Positions 7,551 to 56,899 of a stretch of DNA of 64,000 nucleotides are shown here, one piece after another. Every line of letters begins with the position of its first letter. Position 1 is the stretch's first letter. The stretch spans positions 129,966,808 through 130,030,807 of the forward strand of contig NC_081357.1 of the NCBI RefSeq assembly GCF_030684315.1. Reading direction: 5' to 3'. This stretch comes from Stegostoma tigrinum. Lineage: Eukaryota. The translations under genes were made by a program, and so were the position numbers. The notes below the pieces were generated by a model that was not told the origin of the DNA, searched no databases, and was given only the letters and a program-made list of their open reading frames with translations.

Positions 7551-8716
7551 CGCGTTCTCCCGTATTTCCCGCAACACATCCCTCACACCCCGCCCCCGCC
7601 ACAACCGCAAAAAGAGGATCCCCCTCGTTCTCACATACCACCCTACCAACCTCCGGATACAACGCATCATCCTCCGACACTTTCGCCATTTACAATCCGA
7701 CCCCACCACCCAAGACATTTTTCCATCCCCTCCCCTGTCTGCTTTCCGGAGAGACCACTCTCTCCGTGACTCCCTTGTTCGCTCCACACTGCCCTCCAAC
7801 CCCACCACACCCGGCACCTTCCCCTGCAACCGCAGGAAATGCTACACTTGTCCCCACACCTCCTCCCTCACCCCTATCCCAGGCCCCAAGATGACATTCC
7901 ACATTAAGCAGAGGTTCACCTGCACATCTGCCAATGTGGTATACTGCATCCACTGTACCCGGTGCGGCTTCCTCTACATTGGGGAAACCAAGCGGAGGCT
8001 TGGGGACCGCTTTGCAGAACACCTCCGCTCAGTTCGCAACAAACAACTGCACCTCCCAGTCGCAAACCATTTCCACTCCCCCTCCCATTCTCTAGATGAC
8101 ATGTCCATCATGGGCCTCCTGCAGTGCCACAATGATGCCACCTGAAGGTTGCAGGAACAGCAACTCATATTCCGCCTGGGAACCCTGCAGCCATATGTTA
8201 TCAATGTGGACTTCACCAGTTTCAAAATCTCCCCTTCCCCTACTGCATCCCTAAACCAGCCCAGTTCGTCCCCTCCCCCCACTGCACCAACACAACCAGC
8301 CCAGCTCTTTCCCCCCACCCACTGCATCCCAAAACCAGTCCAACCTGTCTCTGCCTCCCTAACCGGTTCTTCCTCTCACCCATCCCTTCCTCCCACCCCA
8401 AGCCGCACCCCCAGCTACCTACTAACCTCATCCCACCTCCTTGACCTGTCCGTCTTCCCTGGACTGACTTATCCCCTCCCTACCTCCCCACCTATACCCT
8501 CTCCACCTATCTTCTTTACTCTCCATCTTCGGTCCGCCTCCCCCTCTCTCCCTATTTATTCCAGCTCCCTCTCCCCATCCCCCTCTCTGATGAAGGGTCT
8601 AGGCCCGAAACGTCAGCTTTTGTGCTCCTGAGATGCTGCTTGGCCTGCTGTGTTCATCCAGCCTCACATTTTATTATCTTGGAATTCTCCAGCATCTGTA
8701 GTTCCCATTATCTCTG
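7551..8716 (+). mobile_element. 5'-truncated Penelope-like element (Cys-rich linker, GIY-YIG endonuclease, pLTR)
   Basis: ORF 7534-8145 has CNRRKCYTC..NVVYCIHCTRCGFLYIGETKRRLGDRFAEH; premature TGA at 8143; pyrimidine-rich pLTR; flanked by direct repeat gtgcattc (7543-7550, 8717-8724). Confidence 0.95.
8585..8616 (+). ncRNA. Minimal type I hammerhead ribozyme motif in PLE pLTR
   Basis: ct-CTGATGA-a-gggtctaggccc-GAAA-cgTC-ag: intact catalytic boxes, stem II, loopless palindromic helix III (ACGT); predicted cleavage after 8614. Confidence 0.8.
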
Positions 8717-21225: not shown

Positions 21226-21681
21226 CTCACTTAGCTAGGCAGGTAGCTGATTCAAAGCAAGACATTCACTGGTTAAAATGATTTGCAATGTGAATGGTGT
21301 GTGCGATTTGTCAACTCGATTTTAATTTGCCTATGAGGTGGGTCAGACTAAGATCATGGTTGGAATTTTTAATTCCAGCCATATGTGTGCTGTGTACTAT
21401 TATTGATTAGAATATAATAGCCTCCACAAAGCAATCACAGAAGGAATTTCAAGTCAAATAGGGAGAACGATTAAATATGGATGAAGTATCCTTCTCTTTT
21501 CATGATACAACTTCACTTATGCAAGTCTCAATATCATTTTCTTGTGAGATTACTAATGTCTCAACCCATCAAAAACACACATGAACAATCGCTTCCTTTA
21601 CTCAGCAGAACTATTAAGTGTTGCCAAGTGGCTATTTGGATATTTAAATAAAGGTGAGCAAAGCAATTACAAAAAATGGGA

Positions 21682-21878
21682 GATAATGGGAACTGCAGAT
21701 GCTGGAGAATCCAAGACAACAAAATGTGAGGCTGGATGAACACAGCAGGCCAAGCAGCATCTCAGGAGCACAAAAGCTGACGTTTCGGGCCTAGACGGGT
21801 CTAGGCCCGAAACGTCAGCTTTTGTGCTCCTGAGATGCTGCTTGGCCGGCTGTGTTCATCCAGCCTCACATTTTGTTG
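21682..21878. mobile_element. Solo fold-back pLTR hairpin insertion with 13-bp TSD
   Basis: 80-bp inverted arms 21717-21796 and 21799-21878 with one mismatch; acaaaaaatggga at 21669-21681 and 21879-21891. Confidence 0.93.
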
Positions 21879-23769
21879 ACAAAAAATGGGATTATTATTT
21901 TAATTTTATTGCAGCCTTATGTTAAAGGACAGCTGTAGCTGCCATGATAACTGAAGGGAACATGATAAAGTATAATTTGGGAAATAATTAAGTTTGTAAT
22001 AGTTCTAATGTTTGTGATAAATATGTAGTTAGTTTCAGGTTATATTTTATTACTGCTCCCCAATCACAATATTATATGACCATAAGACATAGGATAGTTA
22101 AGCTTTTACGCTGATATTATACTGAATTATTTTTGCAACCTAGATTGATCATGGTGAATTAACTAATGAGAGAAGATGAGGTTTAACTGTGGTAGGAAGC
22201 CTCCATTGAATAATTTAAGCCAATCAAAGAAAAGATCAGTTGTGTGGCCCAGGAAGAACATTTTAAAAATGTCAGTGAAATAGTTTGTTTCAAATACAGT
22301 GATGATTTTGTGCACACCTGTCATTTGTCACTGTAGTAACTATATCTAACACTCATTAGCAGATATAATTAAATTTGTGATAACACTGCTTTTTTATAAA
22401 TTTTTGATGGGCATATGTGCTGCACTGTATATATCAAAAATCCTCAGCACTCCCATAGACTTGACCACTTAAAAAGTTGTAGACACGAAGGGTTGTTGGA
22501 GGGAAGTATCCATAATTCCCCTCACAATTCAGTTGCCTGTAATCTTCCAAGTAATGTTCTCATGGGTGTACGCCTAAGTCCTTAGCTGTTTAGCAGATGC
22601 CTGTTTTACAATACATTTAAGAAACCAACTTCAACGTACCGAACCTTTGCATTCTGAGTTCCAAGTCTGGATTTATTTGAATGCTCTTCTTTGAAAAAAA
22701 ATGTAACTTATTACAGCTTTTCCCTAACTCCATCACAATCCCTGGACAATCTGGAAACCTACTTCTGACACTGTTATGCTAATGACTGACGACTACAGAA
22801 TTTAAGGGAGCCCAGGGTCATGAGCCCACTGCGAATGTCAACTGATCTTCAAGAAATTGGAAGTCAGTCATTCACTAATGTAACGGAAGAAGAGCACATA
22901 ACCCACTCCTATCTATCACCCTTCATAAAATCCACAAACAGAAGGTGAAACTGGTCTTTGAAAGTACATTTCACAGGACAATTAAAATTAATGGAAAAGA
23001 AACAAACTGAGGATAACACAGACTGTCAATTCACTGCAAATACACTACTAGTGAAGAACAATTCCCTGACACTGCACGATAAATTTTCAACGCAGTTTCT
23101 TGAGAACAGTGAACAAGAAGGGATGGGAGAATTCTGACTAATCACGTTTACATTAATTTACACAAGTTTTCTTGAGAAGAATGCTTCCTATTCACAGCTA
23201 GAAAAGCACTACCAACCCTACAACAGTCTCCCTATTAGTGAAGCAGCTATGGGAACAGGACCTCGTGCCTTCTTTACTTTGTGAGCAGCTGCTTGGCCAG
23301 ATGTCCCTTGTTGTTCACACATTATACTGTGCGTCATGTTTCTAATGTAAATTTACACTACTTATATTTCTGCCCCTCTCCAGACACAAAATGAAATGTA
23401 AGCAAACCAGCTCATTGGAGGAAATCCAACTTAGATGTCTCAATTTGCAATCAAACCTTTTATAAGAAACTCATTTTGTGCTAATTTTTCTTCTGCAATA
23501 AAACCTTTTCCCTAGTCTGATCTGAATCCCTGTCTTCAATGGTATTCCATCACTGTCTAAAAAATCAGCCGTTAATAACAAACAGATACTTCCCTTGGAG
23601 GGTGATGAAAGTATCTTCACACAGTAAACAAACAGTCAAAAATTTAGGCACAGTTATTTTAGTAGATTTACTGGTAGAGCACTGTAAACACTAACACTCA
23701 AACAGGGAGGCCTTTTGAGCCCTAGACTTTAGTTCTTGATCTCATAATAACATTGATGTCACTGTATCA

Positions 23770-24785: not shown

Positions 24786-25544
24786 ATATTTTCAGGATTT
24801 GCATTCTGTTTTGTGTATGTCACAGAGGGACAGAAGACTGGATGCTTTGTACTCACTTTCTACAAATGGATTAGTTGTGCCTGTACCTTTTACTGACTCT
24901 CCACAAAGGCACAAAGACACATACAGAAGTATCATCTCATTGCAATTGCAGAAACAGTGGCGTGGTCACTGGGTACTGAATATTCAAAGCTTTTTGATCT
25001 CTAAGAAAGACAGGCAAGAAGGAAAGGGAGGACGGTTTGGGCTACTGCTTTTGTGCTCCTGAGATGCTGCTTGGCCTGCTGTGTTCATCCAGCCTCACAT
25101 TTGATTATCTTGGAATTCTCCAGCATCTGCAGTTCCCATTATCTCTGATACTATATCCCATACGTTGTTTGTCCAACCTGAGATTCCGCCAACAAATTTA
25201 ACAAATGTAATCCCTTAAAAATCCCATGGTAACAAAGTGTGGACCTGGATGAACACAGCAGGCCAATCAGCATCTCAGGAGCACAAAAGCAGTAGCCCAA
25301 ACCGTCCTCCCTTTCCTTCTTGCCTGTCTTTCTTAGAGATCAAAAAGCTTTGAATATCCAGTGACCACGCCACTGTTTCTGCAGTTGCAATGAGATGATA
25401 CTTCTGTATGTGTCTTTGTGCCTTTGTGGAGAGTGAGTAAAAGGTACAGGCACAACTAGTCCATTTGTAGAAAGTGAGTACAAAGCATCCAGTCTTCTGT
25501 CCCTCTGTGACATACACAAAACAGAATGCAAATCCTGAAAATAT
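24786..25544. repeat. About 300-bp inverted duplication (arms 24786-25092 and 25245-25544) around a 152-bp spacer
   Basis: Arms are reverse complements with a few substitutions and one 7-nt indel; ORFs 24700-25062(+) and 25275-25799(-) share IQSFLISKKDRQEGKGGRFGLLLLCS. Confidence 0.95.
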
Positions 25545-25667
25545 AACTCCCTTGTTTGCTCCACACTGCCCTCCAACCCCACCACACCCGGCACCTTCCC
25601 CTGCAACCGCAGGAAATGCTACACTTGCCCCCACACCACCTCCCTCACCCCCATCCCAGGCCCCAAG

Positions 25668-26138
25668 ATGACATTCCACATTAAGCAGAGGTTCACCTGC
25701 ACATCTGCCAATGTGGTATACTGCATCCACTGTACCCGGTGCGGCTTCCTCTACATTGGGGAAACCAAGCGGAGGCTTGGGGACCGCTTTGCAGAACACC
25801 TCCGCTCAGTTCGCAACAAACAACTGCACCTCCCAGTCGCAAACCATTTCCACTCCCCCTCCCATTCTCTAGATGACATGTCCATCATGGGCCTCCTGCA
25901 GTGCCACAATGATGCCACCCGAAGGTTGCAGGAACAGCAACTCATATTCCGCCTGGGAACCCTGCAGCCATATGTTATCAATGTGGACTTCACCAGTTTC
26001 AAAATCTCCCCTTCCCCCACCGCATCCCTAAACCAGCCCAGTTCGTCCTCTCCCCCCACTGCACCACACAACCAGCCCAGCTCTTCCCCCCCACCCACTG
26101 CATCCCAAAACCAGTCCAACCTGTCTCTGCCTCCCTAA
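25668..26138 (+). CDS. Uninterrupted PLE GIY-YIG endonuclease domain (C-terminal fragment of the PLE ORF)
   Basis: NVVYCIHCTRCGFLYIGETKRRLGDRFAEH..VANHF..RRLQEQQLIFRLGTLQPY.IN without the stop seen in the 7551 copy; lacks RT, so probably not expressed. Confidence 0.7.
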   Translation: MTFHIKQRFTCTSANVVYCIHCTRCGFLYIGETKRRLGDRFAEHLRSVRNKQLHLPVANHFHSPSHSLDDMSIMGLLQCHNDATRRLQEQQLIFRLGTLQPYVINVDFTSFKISPSPTASLNQPSSSSPPTAPHNQPSSSPPPTASQNQSNLSLPP

Positions 26139-26360
26139 CCGGTTCTTCCTCTCACCCATCCCTTCCTCCCACCCCCAGCCGCACCCCCAGCTACCTACTA
26201 ACCTCATCCCACCTCCTTGACCTGTCCGTCTTCCCTGGACTGACCTATCCCCTCCCTACCTCCCCACCTACACCCTCTCCACCTATCTTCTTTGCTCTCC
26301 ATCTTCGGTCCGCCTCCCCCTCTCTCCCTATTTATTCCAGTTCCCTCCCCCCATCCCCCT

Positions 26361-26392
26361 CTCTGATGAAGGGTCTAGGCCCGAAACGTCAG
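26361..26392 (+). ncRNA. Minimal hammerhead ribozyme motif (tandem copy 1)
   Basis: CTGATGA at 26363-26369, stem II gggtctaggccc, GAAACGTC at 26383-26390. Confidence 0.8.
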
Positions 26393-26747
26393 CTTTTGTG
26401 CTCCTGAGATGCTGCTTGGCCTGCTGTGTTCATCCAGCCTCACATTTTATTATCTTGGAATCTCCAGCATCTGCAGTTCCCATTATCTCTGATACTATTC
26501 CAACCTGTCTCTGCCTCCCTAACCTGTTCTTCCTCTCACCCATCCCTTCCTCCCACCCCAAGCCGCACCCCCATCTACCTACTAACCTCATCCCACCTCC
26601 TTGACCTGTCCGTCTTCCCTGGACTGACCTATCCCCTCCCTATCTCCCCACCTATACTCTCCTCTCCACCTATCTTCTTTTCTCTCCATCTTCGGTCCGC
26701 CTCCCCCTCTCTCCCTATTTATTCCAGTTCCCTCTCCCCATCCCCCT

Positions 26748-29805: not shown

Positions 29806-30562
29806 CCACAGAAGGTTAACAGCAATTGATTCAGCAGCTTAATGGAATTTTGACCGATTGCAAGAGAATTTGATTGCAGGAGTGGTGAAGTTTAGTTTCA
29901 ATTGCATAAAAGCTTGGTTCAGCCACACCTTGGTTCACTATTTATTATATTATTGTCAAAGGAGGAGTGAAATAACACCATACTGATTCCTGAGATGGCA
30001 GGAATGTCCTGTTGGGGGCTCGGGGGGGGTGGGATGGGCAAACTGGGCCAGTATTCTCAAGCATATCGAACAGTGAGAAATGATCTCGCTGAAACTCATG
30101 AAATACTAAAGCGATAGAGGAGGTAAGATGTTTTGCTTGGTTGGGTAGTCTAGAGGCAGGGATCACAATTTAACAACAAAGGGAATGCCATTTAGGTATG
30201 TGATGAAGGGAAATCTTTTTACTTAGAGGACTGAGACGATTGTGAGATTGTTAGAGAATTCTGTACTGCAGAAAGCTGTAGAGACTTACTCTTTGAGTAT
30301 ATTTAAGGTTGATAAATATCTGATTACCAATGGCATACAGGGTTATGGGATGGTGTAGGTAAAAAGCATGGGTGTGTGGAATCAGCCATGATCATATTGA
30401 ATGACAGGGCAGGCTGAACTCTCCAAAACGGAGGTGGAAAGAGAACATGCAAATTTTTTTTGAGACAGAGGTGGATAAATTCCTGATGAGCAAGGTGGTG
30501 AAAGATTAACAAGGGTCAGCGGGAATGTGGATTTAAGGTTACAATCAGTTCAGTCATGATCA

Positions 30563-32584
30563 AATCATCATCTCCAATACCATCCATGACCTCATCACCT
30601 CAGGGGACCTCCCACCCACAGCCTCCAACCTTATTGTTCCCCAACCCCGCTCGGCACGCTTCTATCTCCTTCCCCAAATTCACAAACCTGCCTGCCTTGG
30701 TCGACCCATTGTCTCAGCCTGTTCCTGCCACACCAAACTCATCTCCACCTATCAGGACTCCATTTTCTCCCCTTTGGTCCAGGAGCTCCTTACCTATGTC
30801 CGTGACACCACCCACGCCCTCCACCTCCTCCAGAACTTCCAATTCATTGGCCCACAACACCTCATTTTCACCATGGACATCCAGTCCCTTTACACCTGTA
30901 TTCCTCATGCTGATCGCCTGAAGACCTTCCACTTCTTCCTGTCCCGCAGGCCTGACCAGTCCCCCTCCACCGACATCCTCATCCACCTAGCCGAACTCGT
31001 CCTCACCCTCAACAACTTCTCTTTCGATTCCTCCCACTTCCTACAGACAAAGGGGGTGGCCATGGGTACCTGCATGGGCCCAAGCTATGCCTGCCTCTTT
31101 GTAGGTTACGTGGAACAGTCCCTGTTCCACACCTACACAGGCCCCAAACCCCACCTCTTCCTCCGTTACTGTATCGGCACCACCTCTTGCTCCCCAGAGG
31201 AGCTCGAACAGTTCATCCACTTCACCAACACCTTCCACCCCAACCTCAAGTTCACCTGGGCCATCTCCAACACATCCCTCACCTTCCTGACCTCTCAGTC
31301 TCCATCTCAGGTAACCAGCTAGAAATTGATGTCCGTTTCAAGCCCACCGACTCCCACAGCTACCTAGAATACACCTCCTCCCCCCCACCCTCCTGCACAA
31401 ATTCCATCCCCTATTCCCAATTCCTCCATCGCATCTGCTCCCAGGTGAGGCATTCCACTCCCGCATATCCCAGATGTCCAAGTTTTTCATGGACTGCAAC
31501 TTTCCCCCCACAGTGGTCGAGAACGCCCTTGACACACTCTCCCACATTTCCCGCACCACATCCCTCACACCCCGCCCCTGCCACAACCACCCCAGAGGGT
31601 CCCCCTTGTTCTCACATACCACCCCACCAACCTCCGGATACAACGCATCTTCCTCCGACCCTTCCGCCATCTACAATCTGACCCCACCACCCATGACATT
31701 TTTCCATCTCCACCCTTGTCTGCCTTCCAGAGAGACCACTCTCTCTGTGACTCCATTGTCCGCTCCACACTCCCCTCCAACCCCGCCACACCCGGCACCT
31801 TCCCCTGCAACCGCAGGAAGTGCTACACTTGCCCCCACACCTCCTCCCTCACCCCCATCCCAGGCCTCAAGATGACTTTCCACATTAAGCAGATGTTCAC
31901 CTGCACATCTGCCAATGTGGTATACTGTATCCACTGTACCCAGTGTGGCTTCCTCTACATTGGGGAAACCAAGCGAAGACTTGGGGATCGCTTTGTAGAA
32001 CACCTCCGCTTGGTTCGCAATAAACAACTGCACCTCCCAGTCGCGAATCATTTTAACTCCCCCTCCCATTCCTCAGACGACATGTCCGTCATGGGCCTCC
32101 TGCAGTGCCACAATGATGCCACCCGAAGGTTGCAGGAACAGCAACTCATATTCCGCTTGGGAACCCTGCAGCCCAATGGTATCAACGTGGACTTCACAAG
32201 CTTCAAAATCTCCCCCTTCCCCACTGCATCCCAAAACCAGCCCAGCCTGTCCCCACCTCCCTAACCTGTTCTTCCTCTCACCTGTCCCTTCCTCTCACGT
32301 CATGCTGCACCTCCATTTCCTACCTACCACCTCATCCCACCTCCTTGACCTGTCCGTCTTCCCTGGACTGACCTATCCCCTCCCTACCTCCCCACCTATA
32401 CTCTCCTTTCCACCTATCTTCTTTTCTCTCCATCTTCGGTTCGCCTCCCCCTCTCTCCCTATTTATTCCAGAACCCTCTCCCCATGCCCCTCTCTGATTA
32501 AGGGTCTAGGGCTGAAACGTCAGCTTTTGTGCTCCTGAGATACTGCTGGGCCTGCTGTGTTCATCCAGCTCCACACCTTGTTAA
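30563..32584 (+). mobile_element. Penelope-like element with RT, GIY-YIG and pLTR; frameshifted
   Basis: YVRDTTH..TMDIQSLYTCIPH..LVLTLNNFSFD..QTKGVAMGTCMGPSYACLF..FLRY (the YIDD codons are deleted) and GIY-YIG ORF 31716-32264; TSD cagtcatg(a/g)tca at 30551-30562 and 32585-32596, inside a CR1 tail. Confidence 0.96.
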
Positions 32585-35127: not shown

Positions 35128-36498
35128 CTGTTCAGTTTTAAAACTGATTGACAATTTAAGAATTTTATTTTTTTTCCAGTGGATCTGTATGCCTTTTTCA
35201 GTATGAATTGTGGCAGTGATAGTGAATAAAAGCTGTATTGCACTGTTAGAGATTTCTTTTATATCCATATCCAAGATTTCCCAATGACTGATCTGTAACA
35301 TCCTGTTGGGAGCCAAGGGAGAGGGGTAATGGAGGTTGAGGAGGGATAGTGAGTGGTGAGAGGTGATGGTTAGCAGGCCCAAAGCTGATGTGGAGAGCGG
35401 CGCTGATGTCCCCAAGAACCAAAGCAGACCTTTGTAACAGCCCAGCTTAGCACCTGAACTCTCCTGGCCACTGAGTCTGCCTGGGTAAATAGCAGATCTG
35501 AATCTTGTCTGCACACCTCTGTAGGAGACAGAACGTCTGGCCCCTTGAGTATATGCTATTACCTTTTCCATTGATGCACATGTACACTGTTCTGGATCAG
35601 TGGAATAATTGTACATTTGGAGCTGTACACTGTTAAATATCTAAAGTCAAAACCTAAAGCTAAATGCAAAGCTAAAAAATTATACTCATTGAAATTCGAA
35701 ATGTTCATTTAAAACTTTAATAATTAAATATATTCTTTGGAGTGGCAATGTACTGTTGCCACCCTTGTAGATTACAGTGACCAGACATGACACATTCTTT
35801 TCTTCTTTCCCAATGACTAATCACTTTGCAGTTGTGATTGTTCTAATATCTGTGACCTTGTGGTTGCTTACACTGAAGTTAGTTTAGCAGTTCTTTGTTC
35901 ATCTGTTTTATTGATTCCCGTTCCTCTGAATGCTATTGAACTCCCTTACACTAGCCACTTTTCAAATTTGTCTTTATTCACGTTAGAAGCACTCTCTATT
36001 GCAACATTATAAAGCAACGTGTGAAGTTCATGTTCCTGTCGCCTACAGTCTGTTCAGAAGTCAATGATATCTACAGGATTCTCTAACCATTAAAATTAAT
36101 GATTGGAAAATCTTGTAAAGTCTGGTGACAACCATCCCTGAATTACCCTTATTCTTTCCTTACTTAGGGCATGATGACAAATGTGAAAAACGTTTCTTGT
36201 CCTTTGTTATATTTTCACATGCAACAAAGCAACATACCTGCACCTATGTATGGTACAGGTTTATTGCTCACTGCCCATTGTCGGGAAAATATCCATTATT
36301 CACCAGATTAATTTATTTTGATGATAAAACTGGAAGTACAGACAGTTTCTAAACAAAACAATAATAAAGCAGTTCAACTATCTGTTGTCATTGCTACATT
36401 TGAGCAAAAAATATGCTAAATAAAATGTTAATACAGTTAGATGTTTGTATTAATTGCTGCACAGAAGAATAGCGGTAACCTGGATCAGATACAGAATT

Positions 36499-36691
36499 AA
36501 CAAAGTGTGGAGCTGGATGAACACAGCAGGCCAAGCAGCATCTTAGCAGCACCAAAGCTGACGTTTCGGGCTTAGACCCTAGGCCCGAAACATCAGTTTT
36601 TGTGCTGCTAAGATGCTGCTTGTCCTGCTGTGTTTATCCAGCTCCACACTTTGTTATCTCGGATTCTCCAGCATCTGCAGTTCCCATTATC
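36499..36691. mobile_element. Solo fold-back pLTR hairpin insertion with 14-bp TSD
   Basis: Inverted arms centred on gggcttagaccctaggccc; tcagatacagaatt at 36485-36498 and 36692-36705. Confidence 0.92.
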
Positions 36692-39611
36692 TCAGATACA
36701 GAATTTCTCATTCTATGCAGCAATTTTTTTTTGTCTAAACATAATATTGTAAAATTACTTGTTTCTCTACAGCCAACTCTATGTGCAATTTACTTTTTAA
36801 AAAGATCCACGAAGCATTTGAATCAAACAATTAAAGGTAAAAACATACACTTGAAAGGCTGTAGTCCATACAGTTCTGTACAAAGGTTCAAATGTGATGA
36901 AAAAATTAACCACGAAGTATTACTGTAACATGAACCTTCTTTAAATACTTGTTTTGAAAATAGATCGATTAATCATTCAAAGAAGAATTATTCACGATGT
37001 GTACAACCAGGGCAAAGTGTTTCTGGCCATTCCATTGATTTTGTAATGTTCTCCCTTTGTCAATAGGGCTCACTCCTTTTGTTAATGAATTTGCCAGAGA
37101 CACTTGACAGATTAAGTGAGTTGATTCACTGAGGATCACCGTCATTGTACATCCCTGAGAATAGTCAGAGGCTTGTAATTTTAGAACAAAAATTGAAAAC
37201 GCTTTAATATTAGCAGCTTCGGATTAGACTAATAAAATAAAAAATTCTCTTCCCTTCTTATCATTTGCTGTATGTTTTAACAGTCAGATTTGCTATGTGG
37301 TTTCATCCAGAATTACTGATTTAACAGAATCTGTTGAAAAGGGAAGGAACTAAGAATTGCCTATATTTGAAAGCCACTTTCTTATTGTTGTCTATACTGT
37401 TGTTGCTTATTGTTCCTCATTCTCATTGTTGTCTGCTATTTACAATAAAAATGATTTCATACAAATATGAAAATTTTGCTCACCAGCCAACAAATAGACT
37501 GTTCAGTTCATTCTGTTTTCAGGAAACACGTAATAAACAAGACATAAGTGAATAAAACTTTCCTCACTTTAAACGGTGCAGAAAACCAAACTGCTGGTGG
37601 AAGCATTCAAAACTAATGTCAGTTTGCTCAGATATTTAGATGATGGCCGAGGCCTCATTTCAGCCTTGGTTCATTCTGCACATGTAGACTCTGTTTGAAC
37701 AGCAACTTACAAAAGAAACAAGTTAGATTTGTCTATCAAATAGTTTTGCACTTAAGTGAGTGTTAGACAAGTGTTAAAATTGCCTTCCTCCAACAAAGCA
37801 GTCATTTGAATCATTCTCATTTGGAATCAGTCACTACTCTGTATTCTGGGCGGAAGGATAATTTTGTCATTTACACTTAATTCTGGAACTGAGAAGACAT
37901 GCAGAGTTGTTCATTTTCAGCCCAGCCTATTTTTATTACCTCCTTGCTTCACTCCTTTCCCCCAGCCTGAGAGTTGTGCACATGAAAGATCTGGCTTTTA
38001 CACGGGTCATGTGGTCTCTATTAATAAAAGTAACACAGGAAGTTGCAGAAGCTGGTCAGGGACTGGGCCATGGATTACTTATTGGCCAGAAAGATGCTGA
38101 GTACTGGTTTGTTAAATTTCCAAAATACTGTCTTGTTGTGATCAGTTATTTTAAAACAACATTTCAGTTTCAGGAAAAATACTTTGCAAAATGTGATTGA
38201 GTAAGCAAACAGATTCCCTTTTCTAACATGTAACACCAACAATACTTTAATATTTCTATAAAAATTTTTCCCTTCCTTCGTGAATTAGAGCTTGCTGCAA
38301 TTGTAAAGGTGCAATTTGTTGCAACAGCAGCTCTCGTTAAAAGCTTGCTTGTGATGATAGCTGGTAAAAAGTAAGACTACAGTGAGTGTTCCTGTTGCTC
38401 TTTTTAAATGTTTTCAGCATCTATGATCTTTCACAAGTGTTTTAAAGAACAGACACATTGTAATGCACAAACAGCTGTTTTGGAAATACACATCAGAATG
38501 GATGTATATTAACCCAGGTTTTATGAGTGGCCTGGGGAAATATCCGACATGTCATTTTATACCATTTTATGTTATACAATTCTCCAAATAATTTGGAACA
38601 AGCTGTGGGCAAGTATTCATTCCAGTAATCATCTGAGTCACTCAGTTCACTGTATATACTAAATAGGTACGCATTACAAAACCGTGGAATTCAAAAGCCT
38701 TTTAGCCAAGATTATTCCTTATCCTTGCATGCCTTTTCAGAGTCACCCGCTCCATGATGACCATTTCATTGAGAGGTGAATCCAGCGTCAGGACTGGCCA
38801 TCATGTTAATTAAAAAATGTTGATATTTGCAGCATTTTTCTGGTGTTCTATTTTTCCATTTTGAATGAAAGCTTTAGTACTTGGAGGAAAAGGAATCAAC
38901 GCTATTTTGGACCAGAGTGCATATGGATGACCCGACTAACCCACAAGCAATAAGAAAAAAAATAAAAGCTTGGTCCAACTTTAGATTGTAAATAGATTCT
39001 GATTTTTGACAGTGAATTTGGTGGTGTCCAGAATATTTGGTGACAGTAAATTCTCACATAGGTGAGCTAAATTTCATTAAGCCATCAATATTTGCCTTGA
39101 ATCTGTCCCTGTTGCTTGTACAGCGCGTAATCTAATGATCCACTACATAGTGTAGCTATCACGCAACTCATTTGCAGCTCAGAGTTACTGCTTAACTGAA
39201 AGCCTAGTTGAAATGCAATTGCAAATGGTTCTTTTTAAACAAGTCATACAGTATAACGTAGTCACATATTTTGAAATCTAGATAAGCTTTCAGAACTGAA
39301 AGTTTACATTTACATCATTGGCTCATCTCAATACGTCACTTTCAATTTAATTAGTAATAAGGACACATATGATACATGAGTACTAGGAAACTGCAATGCA
39401 AATATCACAAGCAAAGATTAACTTTGAGAAATTATCTTATTTATTTTCTTGACAAACACTTCAGCAAGTGTCATTTGCAACAGAAAGAACTAAATTTCTT
39501 TTCATTTACATGGCCACTTAACAGAGCTTTTTTAGTTTTGAAGTCCCCACATGTAGGATATGCAGACCCATATATGACTTCAAACCTACAGCAGAATTAT
39601 TGAATATTTTT

Positions 39612-45242: not shown

Positions 45243-45440
45243 TAACACCGAGTGGAGCTGGAGGAACACAGCAGGCCAGGCAGCATCAGCACAGCAGGAA
45301 AGTTGACATTTCGGGTCGGGAAGGGAAGCTTTTCTGAAACATCAGCTTTCCTGCTCCTCTGATGCTGCCCGGCCTACTGTGTTCCTCCAGCTCCACACTG
45401 TGTTATCTCTGACTCCAGCATCGGCAGTTCTGACTATCTC
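45243..45440. mobile_element. Fold-back pLTR hairpin
   Basis: gtggagctggaggaacacagcaggcc..gacatttcgggtc / gaaacatcagc..ggcctactgtgttcctccagctccac; no TSD seen. Confidence 0.88.
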
Positions 45441-47363: not shown

Positions 47364-48145
47364 TTCTGGAGCAATGCACTGCTAAGTGGAAGAAAACTGA
47401 ATCAAGCAAACAAAATGACTGACTAAAACAGCTCAACTCACTAATCACCCAATCATAATGTGAGCATGAATACAGCAGTGCAGATTGAAACATGTAGACA
47501 TAAATTGCTGCTCCACCTGGAAGGAAGATTTAGGGCTTGAGTGGTGAGGAAAGTAAGGTCAAAGATTACATTACCTTGATTTGCATGGTACTGTTGGAAG
47601 GGAATATGATGTCAGAGGTGACTGATACATGGCCAAAGGTATAATGGAGGGCATGGTCTTTTTGAAATATTGGAAGTGGAGGGGAGAGGAAGAGGTGTTT
47701 GGTGATGGAAATGGCAGATAATGATTAATTTGAACACGCAGGGTGGTGTGGGGGAAGGGGAAGACAATCCTACTATAGTTCTGAGACAGAGTGAAGAGGA
47801 GATTGCAGAAGTGTGGCTACCATGGTCAAAGGGCCCAGTCAACCATGCCAGGGGAAATCCTGAATTGAGAAAAAATAATTCCAGAAATACTGTTGCTGGA
47901 AAGTTGTATCATCAGAACAATACATAGGAGCTGAAGGAACTGTGAGAATATAATGAAGCCTTCCCAGGGAATTAGGTGTGAGCTAGTATCGTCAAGGTTA
48001 CTGTGACAGCAGGCAGAATATCAACAGACAGCCTATAACCAGAAATTGGGACAGAGGTGAAGAGAGGAGTTCAATCTCTGCCATCTTCCAGCCTATCATA
48101 GACCTTCACTTCCTCCTTGTCCTTCCTGTCTGCAGCAAGTGTTGG

Positions 48146-48901
48146 TTGCTGGAAGAACTCCGGATCAGAGTAAATGATCTGGAATCTGAGCTTCAAACTC
48201 TGCGGCACATCCGGGAGGGGGAGAGTTACCTGGACACTTTGTTTCAGGAGGCAGTCACACCCGGTAGATTAAACAACTCAAATTCAGAAAGTGTTCAGGG
48301 ACAAGGTGTGACTGTAATTGAGGCAGGTAGAGGGATTCAGAGTTCAGGAGTGCAGGAGCCTCAGCCCTTGACTTTGACCAACAGGTATGAGATTCTTGCT
48401 CCCTGTACGGATGAGGGAAAGGGCTGCGGACAGGATGAGCCAGCTGACCACGGCACCGTGGTGCAGAAGGCCATTCAAGAGGGGGGAGCAAAAAGACAGG
48501 TAGTTGTTATAGGGAATTCTATAATTAGGGGGACAGATAGTATCCTATGCAAGCCGGATCGGGAGTCCCCGCATGGTGTGTTGCCTGCCGGTGCCAGGGT
48601 GCGGGACATCTCCAACTGGCTTGAAAGGATATTGGAGCGGGAGGGGGAGGATCCAGTCGTTGTGGTCCACGTTGGGACTAACGACATGGGCAAAGCTCGG
48701 GTAGAGGACCAGTTCAGGGATTATCAAGCACTAGGAAAGAAATTGAAGTACAGGTCCTCAAGGGTCATAATCTCCGGATTACTGCCTGAGCCACGTGCTA
48801 ATTGGAGTAGGGAAAAGAAAGTTAGGGAAGTAAACACGTGGCTAAGGGATTGGTGTGGGAAAGAGGGATTCCATTTCATGGGGCATTGGCATCAGTTTTA
48901 G
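48146..48901 (+). pseudogene. CR1 ORF1p: zinc-finger/coiled-coil end plus SGNH esterase-like domain
   Basis: CSKC.LLEELRIRVNDLESELQTL; VVVIGNSIIRG (GDS-like block with Asn), GARVRDI, VVVHVGTND. Confidence 0.88.
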
Positions 48902-49169
48902 AACCGGGAGGGATCTGTACCATTCTGGAACCAGTGTTCTAGTGAAAAGGATAAATAGGGTGGTCAGTAGGACTTTAAACTTCTGAGTCGGGGGAAAGGG
49001 AATGGGAAAGGGAAAGTGACAGGGAGTATGGAGTTAAATGGAAAGATAAGCAGCAGGATAGCATGTGTACAGGTGGGTTTAAGCTCGAGGCAAACTAGGA
49101 ATACAGCAAAAAGGAAGGATAGCTTAGGACATCTTAGGATTTCCAATTTCTCTAATAATGATAAGAAAG

Positions 49170-51545
49170 TTAGCATTAAGGCACTTTATCTAAATGCTCA
49201 TGACTAACGTTGCCGGTGGATCCAAGGAAAGAGAATTCATGGAATGTTTGCAGGATGGCTTTTTGGAACAGCTTGTGATGGAGCCCACAAGGGAGCAGGC
49301 TATTCTGGACTTGGTGCTACGTAATGAGCCAGACTTTATAAAAGACCTTAAAGTAAGGGAACACTTAGGAGGCAGCGATCATAATATGGTAGAGTTCAGT
49401 CTGCAGTTTGAAAGAGAGAAGGTAAAATCGGATGTAATGGTGTTTCAGTTAAATAAAGGTAATTACAGGGGCATGAGAGAGGAATTGACGAAAATTGACT
49501 GGAAGCAGAGCCTAGCGGGGAAGACAGTAGAGCAACAATGGCAGGAGTTTCTGGGTGTAATTGAAGACACAGTGCAGAGGTTCATCCCAAAGAAAAGAAA
49601 GATTATCCGGGGTGGGATTAGACAGCCATGGCTGACAAAGGAAGTCAGGAAATGTATCAAAGAACAAGAGACAGCCTATAAAGTGGCCAAGAGCACTGGG
49701 AAATCAGAAGATTGGGAAGGCTACAAAAACAAACAGAGGATAACAAAGAGAGAAATGAGGAAGGAGAGGATCAAATATGAATTTAGCTAGTAATATTAGA
49801 AATGATAGTAAAAGCTTCTTTCAATACATAAAAAACAAATGAGAGGCAAAGGTAGACATTGGGCTGCTCCAAATTGATGCTGGAAGGCTAGTGATGGGAG
49901 ATAAGGAAATAGCTGAAGAGCTTAATAAGTACTTTGCATCAGTCTTCACAGTGGAAGACATGAGTAGTATGCCAACAGTTAGGGAGAGTCAGGGGGCAGA
50001 GTTGGGTATGGTAGACATTACAAAAGAGAAAGAGCTAGAAAAGCTAAAAGGTCTAAAAATTGATAAATCTCCTGGCCCCGATGGGCTACATCCTAGAGTT
50101 CTGAGGGAGGTGGCTGAGGAAATAGCGGAGGCTTTGGTTGTGATTTTTCAAAAGTTACTGGAGTCAGGGAAAGTCCCAGATGATTGGAAAATTGCTGTTG
50201 TAACCCCCTTGTAAGGATCAAGGCAAAAGATGGAAAATTATAGGCCAATTAGCCTAACCTCAGTAGTTGGTAAAATTCTTGAATCCATTGTCAAGGATGA
50301 GATTTCTAAATTGCTGGAAGTGCAGGGTCAGATTAGAACAAGTCAGCATGGATTTAGTAAGGGGAGGTCGTGCCTGTCAAACCTGTTAGAATTCTTTGAA
50401 GAGGTAACAAGTATGTTAGACCAGGGAAACCCAGTAGATGTTATCTATCTAGACTTCCAAAAGGCCCTTGATACGGTGCCTCACGGAAGACTGCTGAGCA
50501 AGGTGAGGACCCATGGTGTTCGAGATGAGCTACTGGCTTGGATTGAGGATTGGCTGTCTGACAGAAGGCAGAGAGTTGGGATAAAAGGCTCTTTTTCGGA
50601 ATGGCAACCGGTGACGTGTGGTGTCCCTTAGGGTTCAATGTTGGGGCCACTGATGTTCACCTTGTATATTAATGATCTGGATGAAGGGACTGGGGGCATT
50701 CTGGCGAAGTTTGCCGATGATACGAAGATAGGTGGACAGGCAGATAGTACTGAGGAGGTGGGAAGCTGCAGAAAGATTTAGATAGTTTTGGAGAGTGGTC
50801 CAAGAAATGGCTGATGAAATTTAATGTGAGTAAATGTGAGGTTTTGCACTTTGGAAAAAAGAATACAGGCATGGACTATTTTCTAAATGGTGAGAAAATT
50901 TGCAAAGCAGAAGTACAAAAGGATCTGGGAGTGTTGGTCCAGGATTCTCTAAAGGTTAACTTGCAGGTAGAGTCCGTGATTAAGAAAGCGAATGTAATGT
51001 TGTCGTTTATCTCAAGAAGGTTGGAATATAAAAGCAGCGATGTGCTTCTGAGGCTTTATAAAGCTCTAGTTAGGCCCCATTTAGAATACTGTGTCCAATT
51101 TTGGGCCCCACACCTCAAGAAGGACATACTAGCTCTGGAGCGTGTCCAGCGGAGATTCACACGGATGATCCCTGGAATGGTGCGTTTAACATATGATGAA
51201 TGGCTAAGGATCCTGGGATTGTACTCATTAAAGTTTAGAAGGTTGAGAGGAGATCTAATAGAAACTTACAAGATAATGTATGGCTTAGAAGGGGTGGACA
51301 CGAGGAAGTTGTTTCTGTTAGGCAGGGAGACTAGGACCCGTGGGCACAGCCTTAAAATTAGAGGTGGTAAATTTAAAACGGAAATGAGACGACATTTCTT
51401 CAGCCAGAGAGTGGTGGGCCTGTGAAATTCATTGCCATGGAGTGCAGTGGAGGCCGGGACATTGGATGCCTTCAAGGCAGAGATCGACAAATTCTGGATC
51501 TCACAAGGAATCAAGGGCTACAGGGAGAGTGCAGGGAAGTGGAGC
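49170..51545 (+). pseudogene. CR1 ORF2p (APE endonuclease and reverse transcriptase), broken by stops and frameshifts
   Basis: ALYLNA, PTREQAILDLVL, GSDHN, KSPGPDG, NYRPISLTS, QHGF, LDFQKA, GVP*GS, FADD, RPHLEYC. Confidence 0.93.
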
Positions 51546-56065: not shown

Positions 56066-56228
56066 AACAAAAATGTGAGGCCGGAGCAGAGTGACCTGCC
56101 AGACCTCGCCTATCCCGACCTTCCACCAACCTCAGAATTGAGGGCTGACAGGAAGCGACTCTTAAAGTGGCCAATATCTACATCTGTAAAAAATTATGTA
56201 TATATAAAATATATTTAAAGTACATAAG

Positions 56229-56416
56229 AGATAGCAAGAACTGCAGATGCTGGAGTCAGAGACAATACACCGTGGAGATGGGATGAACACAGCTGGTCAG
56301 GCAGCATCAGAGGAGCAAGAAAGTTACAGGTCGGGACCCTTCTTCAGAAAAAGTCAACTTTTCTGTTCCTCTGATGCTGCCTGTGCTGTTCAGTTCCTCC
56401 AGCTCCATATTGTCAA
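56229..56416. mobile_element. Fold-back pLTR hairpin with 13-bp TSD
   Basis: Imperfect inverted arms; taaagtacataag at 56216-56228 and 56417-56429; minus strand CTGAAGAagggtcccgacc at the apex. Confidence 0.88.
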
Positions 56417-56689
56417 TAAAGTACATAAGTATTCACTCCAGTTTCATCCTTTACCATCAGATTTTATGGAACCTGAAGTCTTTGCTCAACTCCCGTTCTG
56501 ACATTGCTAACCCTCACCTCCTAAATTATTCCAATGGAGATCAAAAGAAAATTGAGTCTTTTGACCGAACCAAACAGCCTGCTTGATTGGCACCACATCC
56601 ACACACAACCTTCGGACTAAACTTCAAATGGAACAATTTCAGATCATAACCACTATCCTCATTCTTTCAGGTGGTAGCTGTGCATCACA

Positions 56690-56843
56690 ATAAAAGTGAA
56701 ATTCTGCAAATCTTGGAAATCTGAAATAAACACAGAAAATGCTGGAGAAACTCAACAGGTCTGGCAGCATGTGGGGCTAACTCTGTTTCTCTCCCTTTAG
56801 ATGGTGCCAGACCTGCTGAGTTTCTCCAGCATTTTCTGTGTTT
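56690..56843. mobile_element. Fold-back pLTR hairpin
   Basis: aaacacagaaaatgctggagaaactca.caggtctggca / tgccagacctg.tgagtttctccagcattttctgtgttt. Confidence 0.88.
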
Positions 56844-56899
56844 GCGGTGGGTTATGACTTTGCTATTTCCATCTCCCTTCAGTCCATCATTTGTCCTTT

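Follow-up and report, generated by a model that had tools for sequence, protein, structure and literature searches.

A head-to-head pair of Penelope-like pLTR ends within a single 13-bp TSD in Stegostoma tigrinum, probably formed by twin priming

The window analysed here is a 64,000-nucleotide stretch of Stegostoma tigrinum DNA (contig NC_081357.1). Within it, a 197-bp insert (21682-21878) sits between two identical 13-bp repeats, of which the left TSD (21669..21681; ACAAAAAATGGGA) matches the right TSD (21879..21891) at 13/13 bases and ends in two bases that also equal element positions 2-3. Hairpin arms of 80 nt each (21717-21796 and 21799-21878) differ by a single mismatch (21747) and are separated by a 2-nt spacer, and the insert DNA folds at −111.9 kcal/mol (z −23), a value equalled by 0 of 200 shuffles. 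Direct reading of the window bears out the insert length, the 80-bp arms and the perfect 13-bp TSD given in the original prediction, as well as its statement that the insert is made only of pLTR sequence: over its full 197 bp it matches other pLTR copies of the window. The flanks of the insert contain no repeat sequence. No empty site was seen, and fragmented contigs from four runs of one sample show no joint across the insert among the matches listed.

The pLTR-end repeat occurs about 15 times within the 64-kb window, and its longer copies continue into GIY-YIG and RT pieces, arranged as RT, endonuclease, pLTR. A longer, broken parent-type copy (30537..32583, plus strand) holds an RT piece, a GIY-YIG piece and a pLTR in that order. 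An RVT_1 match at 30537-31319 has an E value of 1.6e-4 and GIY-YIG matches in three copies adjoining the same pLTR have E values of 4e-4 to 5e-3, all in broken pieces and under the Pfam curated cut-offs. An intact minimal hammerhead motif in three window copies has the features given in PMC4209133, and an Rfam scan of the window at gathering score gave 0 matches. RT and GIY-YIG pieces are joined to the same pLTR and hammerheads are intact, and the insert therefore derives from a Penelope-like element (PLE). Features of EN+ Penelope-like insertions are found together here: RT then GIY-YIG, a pLTR with a minimal hammerhead, a one-sided tail of 30-40 bp, an inverted 5′-truncated copy and a TSD enclosing the whole unit. 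The reference is a parent-type, 5′-truncated copy (7556..8715, plus strand) with a GIY-YIG piece and an intact minimal hammerhead at 8587-8610; it is numbered on the minus strand, in the first-cDNA direction, from reference 1 at 8715. On this scale the tail end (S1) is at 1, the inner end (S2) at about 36-37, the predicted ribozyme cut at 101/102, stem II at 110-121 and the CTGATGA box at 123-129.

At the insert, two such pLTR ends meet head to head. The left arm (21682..21796), whose element sense strand is minus, runs from S1 (reference 4) to reference 119 within hammerhead stem II, of which it retains 10 of 12 bases (21787..21796). Its 35 nt between S1 and S2 (21682..21716) form the tail, as defined in PMC8557442 and PMC11167929, and are present on the left arm only. 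The right arm (21797..21878, plus strand) is inverted, begins at S2, the inner site (reference 40), and ends at reference 121; it has a complete 12-base stem II (21797-21808), a GAAA box (21809-21812) and a predicted cut after 21816. As originally noted, the CTGATGA box is missing on both arms, and because it is absent the right-arm hammerhead is predicted to be inactive. The arms join bluntly at 21796..21797, without microhomology, and the 'gg' of the apex represents the first bases of the right arm's stem II. The apex does lie at stem II as claimed, but it is not inside one stem II: a nearly complete and a complete stem II meet there. The insert is asymmetric, with the 35-nt tail private to the left arm and two stem-II bases private to the right. 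A variant common to both arms is otherwise rare (1 of 216 sampled copies), and they therefore had one template. By exact-pattern count, the apex of this locus occurs 10 times genome-wide.

Hairpins of the same kind recur in the window. One (36485..36705; hairpin 36499-36691) combines S1 with S2, has a 14-bp TSD and is joined within stem II, and an older one (56216..56429) has a 13-bp TSD and keeps the box on its long arm. At 45257-45438 lies a further older, diverged hairpin of this kind for which a TSD was not found, and at about 56727-56847 a short hairpin from a different, distantly similar end sequence, perhaps formed by the same process in another family. A ~760-bp inverted duplication at 24786-26490 (24786-25544 against roughly 24790-25545 on the other strand) contains unrelated DNA as well as an S2 arm and a short S1 arm; next to it lie a 945-nt copy and a tandem upstream copy. 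At 47987-49787 a GDSL esterase-like ORF is followed by a weak endonuclease match, which we take to be the arrangement of a LINE with an esterase ORF1.

An unbiased sample of 144 stretches of 10 kb (1.44 Mb), placed at round positions on large contigs, contained 305 element ends, in 63 head-to-head pairs and 179 unpaired arms. Arm ends are BLAST edges and are rough for old copies; 30 loci found with a query containing two apex bases, which all of them share, were left out of every distribution count. S1 is paired with S2 in 61 of the 63 pairs, the remaining two being S2+S2, while unpaired arms divide into 89 S1 and 90 S2 (binomial p 2e-16 for the S1+S2 excess among pairs). This fixed pairing points to two primings. 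At the apex of the 61 S1+S2 pairs, the arm without the tail outreaches its partner by more than 3 nt in 25 and the tailed arm does so in 19; in the other 17 the two differ by at most 3 nt. Pairs are short-short (56) or long-long (7) and never mixed, where the reference, ending at 1160 nt, leads very long pairs to be scored as unpaired; three more long S1+S2 pairs (L033, L074, L151) and one long inverted pair that looks S1+S1 (L187) lie outside the 63. Subfamily variants agree between the arms of a pair more often than after shuffling: diagnostic sites that differ between the arms make up 8.7% in younger pairs (n=33), where shuffled pairs give 24.5% (16.5% at the lowest of 500 shuffles), and 19.7% against 39.7% in older pairs (n=30). 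Four exceptional pairs, with arms differing at 5-7 diagnostic sites, suggest two templates or decay. At least 4 element bases lie beyond S1 in 8 of 44 short S1 arms; the template therefore continued past S1, which is internal. TSDs are 8-17 bp long across the loci where they were found. Extrapolation from 55 short pairs gives a rough genome total of ~120,000 hairpins (92,000-159,000), and the single locus is an ordinary, trimmed member of this very large class.

Arm ends are concentrated beside the ribozyme. Among paired arm ends (n=126), 47 fall in reference 128-136, 15 in 122-127 and 18 in stem II; at ≥90% identity (n=62) the figures are 21, 10 and 3. For unpaired arms (n=173, after dropping 6 at stretch edges), 42 end in 128-136, 4 end in stem II and 81 pass reference 150. 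One arm reaches 128-137 in 26 of the 63 pairs, both arms in 11 and neither in 26. The interval 0-7 nt upstream of CTGATGA, rather than stem II, is the main hotspot for the apex. The predicted ribozyme-anchored hotspot is partly supported: apices are distributed far from evenly and gather next to the ribozyme, but the main cluster (128-136) lies upstream of a CTGATGA box that is usually kept. Genome-wide, counts of hairpins whose gap is 0-30 nt are 1030 for those reaching past reference 69, 3045 for 110, 6009 for 129 and 46 for 194, the 6009 being the exact-pattern count of hairpins with the box on both arms; no arm goes beyond about 136 among 100 hairpin loci listed of the past-110 and past-129 sets. 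Per anchor copy, ends amount to 0.19% at 87, 0.95% at 101, 0.19% at 105, 0.89% at 121, 1.05% at 125 and 4.38% at 133, rates for which filters differ between positions, which include mutated continuing copies (per 100 rows, judged by eye: ~25 for 87, 7 for 101, some 40 for 105 and some 25 for 125), and in which one tandem array makes up 22 of 100 rows at 121. At stem II, where the check proposed with the original prediction looked for enrichment, ends form no hotspot of their own: they are no commoner at the 121 border than 4 nt on and far rarer than at 133, and both arms stop in stem II in 3 of the 63 sampled pairs. Stem II as a local peak of ends was rejected, 125 being as common as 121. In the array, a ~4-kb tandem repeat (G000:C1:133605512-133718776), each of the ~22 units contains a pLTR stub that stops at reference 121. 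Copies of a subfamily whose box is followed by an A-run (e.g., L119, L120) stop a similar distance upstream of the box, and the limit thus seems tied to box distance rather than to one sequence.

Ends at 133 are mostly followed by C. Counted by eye among 100 rows listed, the next base is C in 82, T in 5 and A in 13, against C 25, T 36 and A 39 among 100 rows listed for control position 87 (Fisher p 3e-16). Non-hairpin rows were counted separately because inverted arms often start with C; those ending at 133 gave C 24, T 2 and A 12, with four local duplications with C set aside. For unpaired young arms in the random sample, C comes next in 6 of 8 ending at 131-133; unpaired arms ending at 130 continue with A or T (C in 0 of 7). 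The C sometimes doubles as the first TSD base (L219, L230) and is clearly untemplated in few stored loci (L208). Copying of an RNA cap would be expected to leave such a C after arm ends at 133. For L1, the additional G at full-length 5′ junctions is ascribed to capping (PMC11702581), and a cap G is C in the cDNA direction; as read from DNA junctions only, this points to a capped RNA start about 4 nt upstream of CUGAUGA, on the reference copy near 8583. A promoter within the pLTR is known for Penelope. Bases at the putative start fit a TCT-type initiator, a fit that is likely to be a chance match in a pyrimidine tract. The 138-nt RNA front that would begin there folds no better than shuffles (z 0.66). 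A splice acceptor, an idea suggested for D. virilis (PMC4209133), was rejected as the cause of the limit: there is no constant upstream exon, and the lack of an AG acceptor before the limit and the variable bases after it make a splice junction unlikely.

A smaller peak of ends coincides with the predicted ribozyme cut. Position 101 collects ends at about five times the rate of 87 and 105, a ratio inflated by a palindromic 4-mer at 101 that adds hairpin junctions there. Non-hairpin rows, counted by eye, make up about 24/100 at 101, 30/100 at 87 and 17/100 at 105, which corresponds to ~0.23% against 0.06% and 0.03%. With two control positions and counts by eye, the peak is suggestive. For PAc, the Poseidon element of Anolis, no RNA reads ending at the ribozyme cut are reported in the accessible text of PMC11167929. 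Repeated pLTR pieces of other kinds also occur. At L072:6765-8434 and L089:4982-6183, tandem and inverted units combine a pLTR piece (reference 1-252 or 1-198) with a constant unrelated spacer; each carries bases beyond S1, and they look like retrozyme-type arrays or captured sequence. Minisatellites made from pLTR pieces occur with units of 46 bp (G000:C1:149364365-149364590) and 32 bp (C1:153754328-153754753).

With a PLE origin, S1+S2 pairing, a shared template variant, heterogeneous junctions and a sharp limit near 133 observed, the head-to-head pair of one S1 and one S2 end within a single 13-bp TSD was probably formed by twin priming. In this scheme, each strand of a single staggered cut would serve as primer for its own cDNA, with the front part of one and the same RNA as template; one strand would start at S1 and the other at S2, the two internal RT start sites. 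At the capped 5′ end the cDNAs, by then about 133 and 97 nt long, would run off with a C added opposite the cap, to be trimmed and end-joined with short microhomology. About 14 and 12 nt would have been lost at this locus, in joining or by later deletion at the palindrome centre, which would place the junction at the stem-II border. As template, either the front part of a full-length RNA or a short transcript made by a solitary pLTR would do, and priming on the RNA's rear pLTR instead would give long-long pairs. The stub would be a dead-end product arising anew at each site, and stem II serves as a minor annealing site, one of several, with other short palindromes used likewise. In vitro, PAc, a PLE protein, nicks and extends both strands and has two internal starts bounding the tail (PMC11167929). 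The accessible text of the same paper describes a start site that is no different between strands; nothing published accounts for a strand-specific choice of S1 and S2, which counts against the twin-priming reading.

The original prediction envisaged another route, in which a single cDNA folds on itself at stem II, a near-palindrome, and acts as its own primer. It has precedents, since self-priming has been proposed for PLE inverted junctions (PMC3846280) and cDNA snap-back has been seen for R2 (PMC11371274). Ends occur at 121 about 4.7 times as often as at 87 or 105, although ends at 125 match them in frequency, and both arms end in stem II at 13 of 50 loci listed among hairpins past 110 (of 3045). 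Junctions with a single stem II (12 exact and 11 near among 100 rows listed of 1108 matches) could also be produced by snap-back, and variants shared between arms are compatible with it too. Snap-back at stem II would, however, leave one stem II, and the nearly two present at this locus, with no paired primer, therefore speak against it. Within the cDNA, stem II amounts to 3 bp (−0.4 kcal/mol), against −6.8 for pairing between two cDNAs over stem II. A snapped-back second arm should also contain only first-arm sequence. It exceeds this by 2 nt at this locus and by more than 3 nt in the 25 of 61 pairs in which each arm has private bases, which snap-back cannot give, and it halts at S2, neither at random nor at S1. 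As a general route snap-back is largely refuted and its operation here is improbable, and some single-stem-II junctions could be true snap-backs.

Among explanations that retain or replace twin priming, one accepts it and ascribes the limit near 133 to an RT stop or to the end of a short non-capped RNA, with C added by enzyme preference. At the limit a long RNA pyrimidine tract begins and helix I has its 5′ edge, and C is missing after some ends, those at 130; yet C follows ends at 133 and not those at control 87, and long copies read freely through the limit (the 81 of 173 unpaired arms beyond 150), so that we regard this as unlikely. Later collapse, by central deletions, of one long palindrome or of two longer inverted copies side by side would account for the long inverted pairs that do occur (7/63, plus L033, L074 and L151), and the apex of this locus is explicable by a late small deletion. 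This account is very unlikely, given the single TSD around both arms, the same limit in unpaired arms (42/173), in which no palindrome drives deletion, and the addition of C, which is not a product of deletion. Amplification of a fixed hairpin as a MITE-like DNA transposon is barely credible. An exact apex is common to ten loci, but those examined differ in TSD, outer ends and subfamily variants present on both arms; asymmetric ends, widely varying junctions and apices and TSDs of 8-17 bp likewise depart from the TIRs at both ends, uniform copies and fixed TSD length of MITE or foldback elements. The part of the original prediction that derives the palindrome from a retroelement in a single event is upheld: it is a pLTR hairpin from one retrotransposition, not an amplified MITE.

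On the twin-priming reading, the ~100,000 hairpins may record PLE insertion, in which one capped RNA and two fixed internal primings, one per strand of the cut, give an inverted pLTR with a one-sided tail, and the second peak of ends, at the predicted cut, may be the trace of germ-line hammerhead cleavage with the cut RNA as template; we hold this combined proposal tentatively, as somewhat short of probable. If true, one mechanism would cover both the inverted pLTR and the one-sided tail, the RNA start would be mapped to within a few bases, and a first hint of in vivo ribozyme cleavage would be available. The stubs likely record where the element's RNA starts.

Inverted pLTRs were already stated in the original prediction to be known for PLEs, and these, together with tails and opposite-strand hammerhead pairs, are indeed published. 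Canonical EN+ PLE insertions (PMC8557442, PMC3846280, PMC2377424) resemble the present ones in their inverted pLTR pair, one-sided tail, single TSD and parent with RT then GIY-YIG, but here both copies are cut to ~100-130 nt, with no ORF, and arm ends are concentrated at a single place, a hotspot absent from the accessible parts of those descriptions. PMC3846280 explains the inversion by self-priming, and PMC8557442 states the origin of inverted pLTRs and one-sided tails as open. PAc shares two starts bounding the tail, nicking and extension of both target strands and a hammerhead about 100 nt upstream, although the accessible text of PMC11167929 connects this with neither inverted pLTRs nor twin priming nor a cap. 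The minimal hammerheads described for metazoan PLEs (PMC4209133) likewise have CUGAUGA, an extra base before stem II and a minimal, palindromic helix III; for Schistosoma, pairs on opposite strands with 100-700 bp between them are noted there, with no mechanism given in the accessible part, whereas here the core is broken on both arms. R2 snap-back junctions (PMC11371274) likewise carry element sequence in inverted orientation at the 5′ junction, in many cases following a full-length cDNA, but copy only the first cDNA's content and have no fixed second end. Non-LTR retrozymes (10.64898/2026.07.22.740005) consist of tandem units with intact hammerheads, whereas this locus is a single inverted pair with both cores broken. 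Our literature search, which covered few subscription papers, found no paper tying PLE inverted pLTRs to twin priming from two start sites or reporting a capped-end limit. The hairpin class is real; its inverted pLTRs and tails are known, and the twin-priming account and the capped-end limit are those for which no precedent was found. In L1 twin priming the cDNAs derive from separate, non-overlapping RNA segments, the second start has no fixed position and poly(A) lies at the first end. The likenesses are two primings per cut, a discrete TSD, an end-joined inversion junction and an extra G at capped 5′ ends (PMC11702581), and one TSD does surround two opposed cDNAs joined end to end at this locus; here, in contrast, both starts are fixed, there is no poly(A), and the arms overlap over 80 nt to give a palindrome. 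The process works like twin priming, but not in its L1 form.
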